From sequence record NC_018835.1: 64,000 nt of DNA, one strand, 5' to 3'. How positions within the stretch are numbered: the stretch's first letter is position 1; each line of letters begins with the position of its first letter. The position numbers and the translations under genes are program-made. This DNA comes from Escherichia phage NJ01. Below the pieces are notes generated by a model. The model did not search any database. It worked only from the letters and a program-made list of their open reading frames with translations, and was not told the DNA's origin. This document shows, in pieces, positions 13,315 through 29,337 of this stretch.

Positions 13315-14349
13315 ATGGCGTATGGAATATGGACAAGACCGGTCGGTCCGGGGCCAGCAGCACCTGCTGATATTTACATTGACAGTGGTAGCACATTCCC
13401 TCAGTTAAGAAACAGGGTCAGTGGTAATTTTTCTTTTAATGGTAACACATGTGATCTACCTATAAGCGGTTGGGATGGAAGTGGTCAGATAGTTGTAGTC
13501 CCAACAGGGTCTGTTGTTTGGGAGAGATACATACCTCCTAATGTAACATCTGATGTGTATTGGCTAACGGATATATCTGTTATTAATAACTCAACCTTCA
13601 GAGTTACTATGGATTATAATGTAAACGGTTGGGTATTTGATATGGCTTTTAATGTATATCAAATATGGCCTAGAGCTAACAGGAACTATGGAATCACATT
13701 CTCCAACTCTGCTGACTATTTCTCAATCTCTGATTCTGGAGTTGTTGGTCAATGTATTTGGGCTTGGGAGGGTGACATAAATGGTGCTCTTCAAATACCA
13801 GATATTGGTGGTTTTGATATGAGCCGAGCAACTGTCTACGCGAATTGGAGTAACGGCGGAGCAGGTCTGCTATACAACCCATCCAATAGGGTTGTTTATG
13901 TGTACCAGAACAGGTCTCATGATAATGGTAACACAAACCAAACAGGGTACATTGGTGGTGTTAGGATTGCCGTCTTCTGTGATGGTTCGGGAGTACCAAC
14001 CCACAATGGAGGTTTAAATATCTTTTCTCCAAATGGGTCTCAGTGTGTTTTTTCTACATATAGAACCCCTTTTAGTGTTGAGGGGTTTATGCCTATGAGT
14101 GGTGGTAACACATCTTTGGCCTATCCAATGATACCTCTATCTTATGGTGCTGGAGCAATAAGAGGTAAGGCTAGTGGTTGGTATTTTCAACACACAAGAT
14201 CTCACATGATGAATGGCTCTTCTTTTGGTACAGGTTTCGGAAGGATGATTTACTCTTGGAGTAGTCAATATGATTTAGGAGGGGGTGGTGCCCTCGGGTT
14301 AAGTATTCCAATATTAGATGCTAGAAAGATATTCAGGAGTATACAATAA
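13315..14349 (+). CDS. virion structural protein, function unknown
   Basis: 344 aa; start overlaps upstream stop (TAATATG). Confidence 0.5.
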   Translation: MAYGIWTRPVGPGPAAPADIYIDSGSTFPQLRNRVSGNFSFNGNTCDLPISGWDGSGQIVVVPTGSVVWERYIPPNVTSDVYWLTDISVINNSTFRVTMDYNVNGWVFDMAFNVYQIWPRANRNYGITFSNSADYFSISDSGVVGQCIWAWEGDINGALQIPDIGGFDMSRATVYANWSNGGAGLLYNPSNRVVYVYQNRSHDNGNTNQTGYIGGVRIAVFCDGSGVPTHNGGLNIFSPNGSQCVFSTYRTPFSVEGFMPMSGGNTSLAYPMIPLSYGAGAIRGKASGWYFQHTRSHMMNGSSFGTGFGRMIYSWSSQYDLGGGGALGLSIPILDARKIFRSIQ

Positions 14350-25964: not shown

Positions 25965-27248
<1,284 letters not shown>

Positions 27249-27540: not shown

Positions 27541-28287
27541 TTAGAATGGGCTATCGTTGTCGTCTTCGTAAGTAGAAGCAGGCTCTCTATCAATCGTAGG
27601 GATTGAAGGAGTAGCTTCTTTCTGTTCTGTCTCAGAAGCACGAGTAATTTCACGACCAGCCAGAGGCATGTTCTTAGCGTCATTAGCTTGAGTAAGCAGG
27701 TTGCGCTGGAACGGGAACATCAGTTGATAGGATGCTACGTTCTCATCGGTTTCAGCATACGGTTCGAAGAATACCAGAGGACTACGAGCTTCACCAACTG
27801 CTGCACGATATTTGGTTGGGATTGGAGAAATGGTTTTGATGGAGTTTTTAACTTCACCAGCTTTATTAGTGTAAGAGTTAACCAGAATGTTGACAGGCTG
27901 ACCTAACAGTACATCCTTAAACCAAGACAGATCACCTTTCAGTGCTTGAATGCTTGGGTCAATCATCTTGCAGAGATCAAGGATACCAGAGTTCTTAGCT
28001 CGTGGGTTTACATCATAGCTCTTGAACTGGCAAGCAGGACGTGGTTCTAATGCCTTACCATCGGAATCTTTACCAGTAGCATCAACACCAATCAGCTCGA
28101 AAGCCAAATCCATACGGAAAGCTGGATTCTTAGGAGTTACTGCTTTGGTCTTCGGGTCAATCCAAGGGTCACGATTGTGAACACCCAAACCTACTACACG
28201 AACAATACGTGCTTCGTACTCGCCATCAGGGATAATGTCGTAGTTGGATTTACGAGAAGAAGTTGCGATAGTTGGAATCATAGACAT
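27541..28287 (-). CDS. ssDNA-binding protein, T7 gp2.5-like
   Basis: 248 aa; acidic C-terminal tail ending DDNDSPF (cf. SSB DDDIPF); N-terminal region resembles gp2.5 start. Confidence 0.55.
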   Translation of the reverse strand: MSMIPTIATSSRKSNYDIIPDGEYEARIVRVVGLGVHNRDPWIDPKTKAVTPKNPAFRMDLAFELIGVDATGKDSDGKALEPRPACQFKSYDVNPRAKNSGILDLCKMIDPSIQALKGDLSWFKDVLLGQPVNILVNSYTNKAGEVKNSIKTISPIPTKYRAAVGEARSPLVFFEPYAETDENVASYQLMFPFQRNLLTQANDAKNMPLAGREITRASETEQKEATPSIPTIDREPASTYEDDNDSPF

Positions 28288-28344
28288 ATTTTAATTTCCT
28301 TATTTAATTTGAAAGATTGTTGCTCTCTTTGAGCGGTTATGTAT

Positions 28345-28355
28345 AATATACATTA
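28345..28355 (-). promoter_or_regulatory. TAATGTATAT-like motif on minus strand upstream of SSB gene
   Basis: Reverse complement of + strand aatatacatta; ~55 nt upstream of SSB ATG. Confidence 0.35.
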
Positions 28356-28418
28356 CGCTTATACCGATAAGAGTGCTATATAATATAAGTATCTTTGGTA
28401 GTAGATATAACACATTAG

Positions 28419-28429
28419 TAATGTATATA
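28419..28429 (+). promoter_or_regulatory. orphan + strand TAATGTATATA motif in AT-rich intergenic region
   Basis: Identical to motifs at 2047 and 18879 but no + strand ORF downstream. Confidence 0.3.
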
Positions 28430-28703
28430 TTGTATAGCTGATAAAGTTATTGCAGGCTTGTATATTGGGCAATTCACAGAATCCCTTGCAAGTACCGAAG
28501 GGCAGGAGCCACCTGCGAGATAAAAATAGAGAATTAAGGAATCCTTGATTTAGGTTGTAGGGACTCCTAGGGACTTTGATTCTCTATTTAAAAGAATATT
28601 AATTACTTACTACCTAAATAATTAACTAACTTACTTAAACCAAATTCAAGAATAATAGATAAAAAGATTATTCCTAAGAAAGCTAAAAAGTAAAGTATAT
28701 AAG

Positions 28704-28868
28704 TTACCATTCAAGTAAACCTTTAAAGTTAGATTGTTCTACTATTCGCTGATAACGAAGATTAGAATCAGCTTGTTTCTTTAACATCTCATTATATTGG
28801 TCTCTGATAGAGTCTTTATAAACTACAGGTTCTTTAAATAATGAGATCTTGTTCTTTTCTTCTTTCAT
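28704..28868 (-). CDS. hypothetical protein
   Basis: 54 aa; internal ATG with AGGAAGG SD. Confidence 0.35.
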   Translation of the reverse strand: MKEEKNKISLFKEPVVYKDSIRDQYNEMLKKQADSNLRYQRIVEQSNFKGLLEW

Positions 28869-29337
28869 CGAAAACCTTCCTAATCTCTTGCAGAGAAACA
28901 GCTTTATAGTTAATTTGCTCCATTGATGTACAGAAATATCTCCAATCATCAATTACATGATTATGTGTATGAGCATAAATATTAAACTTCCCTCTCATTT
29001 CATCAGTGTGAATAGGAATGTGAGTTATCCAAAACTCTTTATACTTATAATCACCAGAGATTCTACGAAAGACTTTCATCATATCAGGGAGAAGTTCTAA
29101 CCTATCATGGTTTCCTAAGACCAGATGCTTCTCTCCTTTCACTTCAGCGATAATATCAAGGGCATACTTTTCAAATACCCAATCACCAGTAAAGAAGATT
29201 TTATCACGTTTGGTTACGTGGTCAAAAGCAGCCAGAATTGCTTTGTCATGTTCTTCGATGTTTTTAAATTGCTTACGAAAACTACAGATGTTGCGATGGC
29301 CTAAGTGACCATCTCCTGCAAAATAAACTTCAGCCAT
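28834..29337 (-). CDS. metallophosphoesterase (calcineurin-like)
   Basis: 167 aa; GDGHLGH, GDWV, GNHD and HTH motifs. Confidence 0.75.
   Translation of the reverse strand: MAEVYFAGDGHLGHRNICSFRKQFKNIEEHDKAILAAFDHVTKRDKIFFTGDWVFEKYALDIIAEVKGEKHLVLGNHDRLELLPDMMKVFRRISGDYKYKEFWITHIPIHTDEMRGKFNIYAHTHNHVIDDWRYFCTSMEQINYKAVSLQEIRKVFDERRKEQDLII

Follow-up and report, generated by a model that had tools for sequence, protein, structure and literature searches.

Introduction

In phage lambda, the 77-nt OOP RNA is made from the promoter pO, is antisense to the 3' end of cII and was once proposed to be a replication primer. T4 RNA C and RNA D, DicF, IpeX and AgvB/AsxR are further phage-borne small RNAs, of unknown or regulatory function. 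Lambdoid phages contain morons, independent promoter-gene-terminator units located between genes, and phage promoters also form part of replication origins: the T7 primary origin consists of the phi1.1A/B promoters and an AT-rich region, and T4 oriF and oriG of a middle promoter and a DNA-unwinding element. Here, we analyze an intergenic locus of Escherichia phage NJ01 within a stretch of 64,000 nt (NC_018835.1), which is referred to below as the window and to which all coordinates apply. We predict that this locus contains, back to back with a known promoter, a promoter of the phage-sigma type (P+) that would produce a non-coding RNA from the plus strand.

NJ01 is a Kuravirus (phiEco32-like podophage) with 97.7% identity to Escherichia phage 172-1. 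phiEco32 is a model for phage sigma factors and sigma displacement (gp36/gp79). Promoters used by its sigma factor gp36 share a single element, tAATGTAtA (PMC4281155; PMC8948821; PMC12276001). In the open complex of the middle promoter P68, which was solved by cryo-electron microscopy, gp36 reads AATG at positions -14 to -11, G at -37 and A at -34 (PMC12276001). The published set of gp36 promoters comprises P6, P13, P26, P40, P58 and P68 (PMC8948821 supplementary table; SU10 S2 table), and it has been treated as a set of six that all serve protein genes.

A predicted seventh gp36-type promoter

Six exact copies of the 9-mer TAATGTATA are present in the window, compared with 0.61 expected, and none of 100 shuffled sequences reached this number. 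Two of the six copies fall in the studied region, on opposite strands and 72 bp apart. A first-pass annotation of this DNA had described divergent promoter-like motifs here and interpreted them as TATAAT-like repeats. The strings that it quoted are present (gtataatatacat at 28341-28353, ctatataatataag at 28376-28389 and taatgtatatattgtatag at 28419-28437), and the sequence elements of two divergent promoters were confirmed. They are not sigma-70 boxes, however, but two divergent tAATGTAtA elements of the gp36 type, one of which is the published P40; ctatataatataag lies in a poorly conserved spacer, in the -35 region of P40. A generic sigma-70 scan was at chance level (7 sites found versus 5.8 expected from shuffles).

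The sequence of P40, which drives gp40, is listed as a middle promoter in the SU10 S2 table and under the name P40 in the supplementary table of PMC8948821. In the window, P40 and its flanks are identical to the SU10 'middle promoter between CDS37 and 38' except for one base just 3' of TAATGTATA, which is C in SU10 and T in the window.

The plus-strand element, P+, is not among the six listed promoters and is closely similar to P68. The 12-mer TGGTAGTAGATA is found at just two places in the window, in P+ and in P68, and at both of them the -10 element follows after 11 nt. Because this -35 block and the spacing are identical in the two promoters (window P68, ttGGTAGtagatatggtaactctcaAATGtatatagagtA; P+, ttGGTAGtagatataacacattagtAATGtatatattgtA), P+ matches P68 base for base and all known gp36 contacts are in register: TGGTAG occupies -38 to -33, with G28397 at -37 and A28400 at -34, and AATG at -14 to -11 ends in G28423. 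The -10 element, (t/a)AATGTATATA, is the same in P+, P68 and P40. Like these two promoters, P+ would start on an A, 11 nt after the -11 G, and a small hairpin would form the very 5' end of its transcript. In 18/18 aligned Gordonclarkvirinae, the -10 element and TGGTAGTA-AT of the upstream element are invariant; the upstream TGGTAGTAGATA element is kept in 18/18 relatives, and myPSH2311 differs at 2 of its 12 bases.

Unlike P68 and P40, P+ points against the gene cluster, stands outside the published list and is known here from its sequence. No middle or late protein gene follows it. Among the intergenic consensus promoters, only P+ lacks a Shine-Dalgarno sequence and ATG within 20-55 nt; as had been remarked for the motif at 28419, there is no downstream open reading frame (ORF) apart from a non-conserved 32-codon UUG frame. 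We predict that P+ is a seventh gp36-type promoter, new to the published lists.

One of the exact copies of TAATGTATA in the window was detected at 13650-13658 (plus strand) inside a 344-aa late ORF (13315-14349), without the GGTAG -35 block. It may be either a chance occurrence or an internal gp36 promoter.

Anatomy of the predicted RNA

The predicted RNA was compared in an alignment of 18 GenBank relatives and in 24 distinct variants from GenBank, IMG/VR, JGI metagenomes and Logan (for the coordinates of its parts, see Table 1). Its 5'-terminal hairpin, P1, has 5-6 bp, and in all variants its first base is the predicted +1. The stem occurs in different versions, all of which pair (AUAGCU/AGUUAU, AUAGCU/AGCUAU, AGAGUU/AACUCU, AUAGA/UCUAU, AUAGUU/AACUAU, ACAUC/GAUGU and ACAGU/ACUGU). 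Two pairs show double changes, and the observed covariation score was reached by 0/500 shuffles; 0/200 shuffles folded as well as P1 (-2.9 kcal/mol). On the minus strand the energy is 0 kcal/mol, i.e., P1 cannot form there because of its G·U pair.

The hypervariable module is of type A in NJ01, and relatives swap in unrelated modules of types B (66 nt), C (31 nt) and D (32 nt), giving four types in total. In the core hairpin, the sole variable base lies in the loop. CCUGCGA of this hairpin may alternatively pair with UUGCAGG (28450-28456), and a G-to-A change in variants L050 and L051 converts a U·G pair of this long-range helix to U-A.

The 3'-terminal hairpin, P3, folds on the plus strand with -23.5 kcal/mol (z -3.4). 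Its variation falls in loops and bulges (AAU, AAAU or AUU; in the apical loop, UA missing or replaced by UG; a bulged G deleted) or else gives G·U pairs, and a C insertion in L045 and L051 (UCC to UCCC) pairs the bulged G. Where a single small hairpin had been reported in the region, several are present, including P1 and P3. A direct repeat had been reported as well: TAGGGACT is indeed exact at 28558-28565 and 28568-28575, although the start given for it, 28555, was 3 nt early. It is not an iteron; one copy lies in the apical loop of P3 and the other in its 3' strand. The count of TAGGGACT is not beyond chance (4 in the window versus 2.1 expected), and the significance of the repeat comes from its conservation; in one allele both copies lose a G together.

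The fold of the RNA region is -44.6 kcal/mol on the plus strand and -35.3 kcal/mol on the minus strand, and 690/693 cells of the consensus pairs are canonical on the plus strand versus 638/693 on the minus strand. This pairing advantage is due to the G·U pairs in P1 and P3.

Conservation and distribution

Conservation starts at the -35 element of P+ and stops at the end of P3. A block bounded in this way by a promoter and a hairpin fits a plus-strand RNA gene. The 95-nt 3' half (28495-28590, CNGAAGGG to the end of P3) has 93-100% identity where the gp40 coding sequence has 72-81%, and homology ends at P3 in phages that have a different rightward gene. Each of the 97 phage records with a match to the flanks (GenBank, Escherichia/Shigella) also matches the core (query positions 25-343). 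The first-pass annotation had counted lack of conservation in related phages as evidence against its reading; the sequence of the predicted RNA is found in every one of these 97 records and in those metagenomic relatives that have the conserved core.

Metagenomic relatives whose gp40 is 70-75% identical have a diverged unit, with the promoter GGTAG...TAATGAATA, a new P1 and new modules. More distant relatives, with gp40 identity of 63-69% (L027-L029, L048 and L049), contain a gp40 leader of ~147-190 nt and no promoter/RNA unit. As the unit is present or absent among relatives, it has the character of an accessory insertion, a moron-like unit that carries RNA, and not that of an essential cis-element. 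It shares with morons its own promoter, a terminal hairpin, a location between conserved genes and presence in only some relatives; it differs from them in its RNA cargo, in residing in a lytic phage and in its phage-sigma-dependent promoter. The RNA alleles form a mosaic, indicating recombination. The RNA is single-copy per genome, and the window contains no second copy of it; only the promoter elements recur.

The relatives that lack the RNA (L027-L029, L048 and L049) share a different conserved gp40 leader of ~100 nt, which has hairpins CTAGC-AAA-GCTAG and AGCATAT...ATATGCT and, on the strand of the gene, a TAATGGATA element. These features hint that sigma specificity differs in these phages and that the leader of their SSB gene is structured.

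Transcription model and alternative explanations

The best explanation overall, to which we assign a probability of about 0.62, is that the locus would comprise two middle-phase units arranged back to back, P40 with gp40 and P+ with a non-coding RNA. Among the options raised in the first-pass annotation (regulatory hub, origin or non-coding RNA), a plus-strand non-coding RNA is the best supported. Leftward, P40 would drive the SSB-like gp40. Rightward, opposite to every surrounding gene, P+ would start at A28434 and produce a ~156-nt RNA ending at P3 (~28590). The RNA would be built of a 5' stabilising hairpin, a conserved UUGCA...CCUGCGA frame, the swappable module and a nearly invariant 3' scaffold. 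P3, which lies between the RNA gene and the converging gp41/phosphoesterase operon, would most likely terminate transcription in both directions, more strongly on the minus strand, and the plus-strand RNA may end there by weak termination or trimming, or may partly read on as antisense. In this model, we infer the firing of the promoter, the exact 5' and 3' ends and an action in trans, as a regulatory or protein-binding small RNA that owes its specificity to the variable module.

That a discrete functional RNA is made from the plus strand appears reasonably probable from these features. Our best estimate is that it would be a stable, middle-phase, trans-acting small RNA with specificity provided by the variable module, and our confidence in any mode of action is much lower. 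A doubtful but conceivable mode is that of a phage-sigma-driven accessory riboregulator or decoy, in which the 3' scaffold would bind a conserved factor of the host or the phage and the cassette, with its four types exchanged by recombination, would set the target; an RNA-based counter-defence or host-takeover device in an arms race would be an example. To our knowledge, such a cassette-swapping design has not been described for phage small RNAs. The predicted RNA is similar to T4 RNA C, RNA D, DicF, IpeX and AgvB/AsxR in that it is 100-200 nt long, structured, non-coding and phage-borne, but it has no sequence or Rfam relation to them, its promoter type and architecture are different, and it lacks an Hfq-type U-tail terminator. 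If the model is correct, a seventh promoter, a structural twin of P68, adds a layer of regulatory RNA in the phiEco32 group, and a small RNA of a lytic phage is tied to the middle phase, with the scaffold-plus-cassette organization hinting at a function in specificity.

Several observations weigh against this model. On the plus strand, P3 is followed only by UUU(U)AAAA (UUUAAAAG; UUUUAAAAC in distant relatives), a poor tail for an intrinsic terminator, which makes the position of the 3' end uncertain and allows for read-through into an antisense transcript. P3, which is flanked by A5 on its 5' side and U3 on its 3' side, is long and A+U-rich at its base, whereas a canonical intrinsic terminator is a G+C-rich, short-loop hairpin with a U-tract, and a pattern scan for canonical terminators detected none at the locus. 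Outside P1, the 42 remaining pairs either do not vary or change at just one of their two bases and so are uninformative for structure, and the middle domain folds no better than shuffles (z -0.4). The near-identity of the 3' half may result partly from recent recombination and not from selection at every base. The searches made revealed no target, partner or known RNA family. Finally, the RNA is not described in the literature covered on phiEco32/Kuravirus antisense transcription, intergenic regions and RNA-seq, a coverage that did not extend to the primary papers Savalia 2008 and Pavlova 2012, which might mention the promoter.

The same hairpin could instead belong to the minus strand, as a terminator or RNase III-type processing hairpin of the gp41/phosphoesterase operon, and P+ could only fire antisense, acting by interference from convergent transcription or through double-stranded RNA in the style of lambda OOP, with no discrete small RNA function. 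The RNA gene and the upstream operon face each other, P3 has -18.2 kcal/mol (z -3.9) on the minus strand and is followed there by UUUUUAU, and with the poor plus-strand tail, antisense read-through into gp41 and the phosphoesterase gene is likely. However, ~90 nt (28434-28523) are conserved past the minus-strand terminator, in a stretch that minus-strand transcripts ending at the terminator would not include; because these nucleotides lie beyond the minus-strand U-tract, the block does not fit a 3'-untranslated region element or terminator of the minus operon. In addition, P1 covaries and is excluded from the minus strand, and 2-3 G·U pairs of P3 become A·C there. Conservation ends exactly at P3 whatever gene follows, so the antisense partner is not conserved. 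The last position of the block, 28590, is 13 nt short of the gp41 stop, in Paul the block ends 35 nt before the phosphatase stop, and in neither case does it overlap the convergent gene. The predicted RNA is like OOP in having its own promoter, an orientation opposite to the genes, a position in the replication region, a hairpin end and convergence with an mRNA; but OOP works by its overlap with cII, whereas this RNA stops short of a partner gene that varies, has double the length of OOP and contains a swappable module. We regard the antisense explanation as unlikely. A small plus-strand protein, such as the product of the 32-codon UUG ORF (28450-28548), is barely credible. This ORF is present in the window, and a similar open frame occurs in SR02, Bas89, L045 and L051, but it has neither an AUG nor a Shine-Dalgarno sequence, it stops after 9 codons in phiEco32, and in type B it terminates ahead of the conserved part. 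With modules that are 40, 39, 66, 31 or 32 nt long, the conserved part falls in all three frames (0, 1 and 2); most variants have this frame broken or shifted, and no reading frame is conserved.

The location of the locus next to an SSB-like gene within the replication gene cluster also raises the possibility of a promoter-activated origin, in which the plus-strand transcript would prime replication or open AT-rich DNA to the right. P+ is a middle-class promoter without an ORF, DNA with ~80% A+T (28591-28703) follows after 156 nt, and gp40 has a weak, sub-threshold NCBIfam match to a family named 'phage replication initiation protein'. These features recall the T7 and T4 origins, which have a phage-specific promoter, AT-rich DNA and a place in the replication cluster; unlike in those origins, a folded, conserved segment of 156 nt intervenes, the AT-rich part is not conserved (some phages have a small ORF there, and in others it is where the phosphoesterase gene ends) and the unit is dispensable in relatives. 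Its absence from phages with the same replication genes is unexpected for an essential origin, and a primer or R-loop function would leave a hypervariable module in an invariant scaffold unexplained. Skew and repeat analyses, which the first-pass annotation had suggested, also turned out against its origin reading: neither iterons nor tandem repeats were found, DnaA-box arrays are absent, and cumulative GC skew has no inflection at the locus, only the one at the strand switch at ~23.8 kb. An origin is therefore quite improbable in our view. Even less probable is an element acting only as DNA, e.g., an operator, a homing-endonuclease target or a boundary of module exchange, with a silent or incidental promoter. 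Such an element could account for the invariance of the 3' half even in predicted loops, for the mosaic recombination of alleles and for HNH endonuclease genes that come and go nearby. On the other hand, P+ has an invariant -10 element and matches P68 at each known contact, the covarying hairpin at +1 with its G·U pair points to single-strand pairing and not to duplex recognition, and there is a single copy per genome.

Searches for RNA families and targets

A covariance search, which the first-pass annotation had proposed, assigned no family to the locus: with Rfam 15, no hit in the locus reached the gathering threshold, and tRNA-Arg, elsewhere, was the only hit in the window. Permissive Rfam scans of both module types gave only matches with E > 1 (snoRNA, ES056, CRISPR-DR47, RsaA, CopA and DUF2815), and a tRNA/tmRNA scan found none at the locus. 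When the RNA was compared with 233 translation-initiation regions by RNAduplex, the best energy was -44, and shuffles gave -45 ± 2.7. Exact complementarity of at least 11 nt elsewhere in the window was no more frequent than in shuffles. The RNA region had no match in 5,426 E. coli genomes, a comparison by which short seeds cannot be assessed.

Three candidate relationships were considered and rejected. P3 on the minus strand has a 16/17 match to the tRNA-Arg leader and 5' acceptor, and apical P3 looks like a T-arm/acceptor. This link was judged to be chance, because WFI101126 has an identical RNA gene but another tRNA-Arg and leader, and most relatives are without that leader. A CsrA sponge was proposed on the basis of four GGA motifs, but the GGC-AGGA-GCC loop is destroyed by a C/A polymorphism and there was no supporting pattern. 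A CRISPR-repeat mimic (GCAGG-loop-CCUGC followed by GAGAUAAA) showed only a loose resemblance to type I-E/I-F repeats.

The tRNA-Arg(UCU) allele of the window (59231-59305, minus strand) differs from that of WFI101126 at the same place (acceptor GUCCCUA versus GCGCUCU). Its leader is common only to XT18, pEC-N1203-2Af.1 and, partly, 172-1 and ECBP2, and the tRNA gene is replaced within the genus.

Genomic neighborhood

Over 1.9 kb around the locus, NJ01 is 96-98% identical to 172-1, SU10, phiEco32 and ~90 other Gordonclarkvirinae (Kuravirus, Suseptimavirus). From ~24 kb to 64 kb, genes are on the minus strand. The region is AT-rich, as had been noted (29.6% GC versus 42.2% for the window). Its description as a 416-bp non-coding region holds for ~315 nt (28288-28602), and about a quarter of it is the annotated small ORF gp41; the unassigned part reaches gp41 through a 12-nt spacer. 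It had also been called the longest non-coding stretch of the replication region; in a crude gap scan, the early region had further gaps with lengths of 350-390 nt, and at least one listed gap was an artefact. In annotation, the 315-nt 'gap' should carry two promoters and a non-coding RNA feature, and spurious ORFs are called here in some records. For example, g037c of phage 4E8 (L005, 1237-1431, minus strand), a 64-aa 'hypothetical protein' over the P40/P+/RNA region, is not conserved and is probably a spurious call.

Table 1. Features of the locus and its surroundings in the window
Feature	Position	Strand	Comment
Phage sigma factor gp36	26344-26988	-	
gp40 homologue (phi32_40)	27541-28287	-	248 aa, OB-fold, SSB-like, acidic C-terminal tail ending in F
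gp40 5'-untranslated region (5' UTR)	28288-28340	-	predicted start A28340, inferred from published -11G geometry
gp40 Shine-Dalgarno sequence	28301-28296	-	AAGGAA
gp40 5' UTR hairpin	28334-28322	-	GCUC-AAAGA-GAGC; small, conserved
P40	28341-28378	-	known gp36-dependent middle promoter; -10 TAATGTATA at 28355-28347, exact consensus
Spacer between divergent promoters	28361-28395	.	variable, poorly alignable among relatives; overlaps P40 -35 region
P+ (predicted gp36-type promoter)	28396-28433	+	-35 TGGTAG at 28396-28401, -10 TAATGTATA at 28419-28427, predicted +1 A28434
Predicted non-coding RNA	28434-28590	+	~156 nt (142-184 nt in relatives)
P1, 5'-terminal hairpin	28434-28450	+	AUAGCU-GAUAA-AGUUAU, opens at predicted +1
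Hypervariable internal module	28455-28494	+	type A here (40 nt), between conserved UUGCA and CNGAAGGG
Conserved core	28495-28523	+	hairpin GCAGG-AGmCA-CCUGC (28502-28516) and A-rich linker GAGAUAAAAAU
P3, 66-nt hairpin	28524-28589	+	outer stem 16 bp including 2 G·U; inner stems UCC/GGA and UAGG/CCUA
gp41 homologue (phi32_41)	28603-28710	-	35 aa, hydrophobic, annotated in phiEco32 and relatives
Metallophosphoesterase ORF	28834-29337	-	

The adjoining gene had been called an SSB gene, and gp40 agrees with this, having both the OB fold and the acidic C-terminal tail. Part of its 5' UTR (28314-28337) is invariant in 18 relatives. A segment overlapping this leader (28285-28326, minus strand) has a weak Rfam match to the DUF2815 RNA motif (RF03084; 15.2 bits versus a gathering threshold of 41.2, E 1.2-7), a chance-level score in which the hairpin of the model is missing. 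The DUF2815 motif is found upstream of phage SSB-like genes, and by analogy an autoregulatory leader on the gp40 mRNA is conceivable.

In myPSH2311-type phages, the spacer between the two promoters (window ~28360 to 28396) contains an insertion of ~140 nt with an unannotated basic ORF of 47 aa (MKFNHKYAATEKARAYV...). In myPSH2311 (L016), where this ORF occupies 924-1067 of the minus strand, its start codon ATG shares bases with the -35 element of P+ (CATGGTAGTA). The same insertion occurs in L020, L031, L033, L035, L039 and L040.

On the other side, the gp41 ORF matches phrog_24970 (E 4e-23), and its start codon shares bases with the stop codon of the ORF before it (ATGGTAA). gp41 is confined to a subset of relatives; it is absent in Paul, XT18, Bas86, E20-1 and ECBP2, and in these phages the phosphoesterase gene adjoins the RNA gene. 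The phosphoesterase gene is found in the window and in most relatives and is missing from phiEco32, where only 5% aligns. An HNH homing-endonuclease gene is located between gp39 and gp40 in WFI101126 (L001, 1543-1956), SU10 and Ptacy1532 and is absent from the equivalent position in the window (~27520); other HNH genes occur to the right of the phosphoesterase gene in 172-1, XT18 and Bas89. The neighborhood of the RNA locus is a hot spot for mobile endonucleases.

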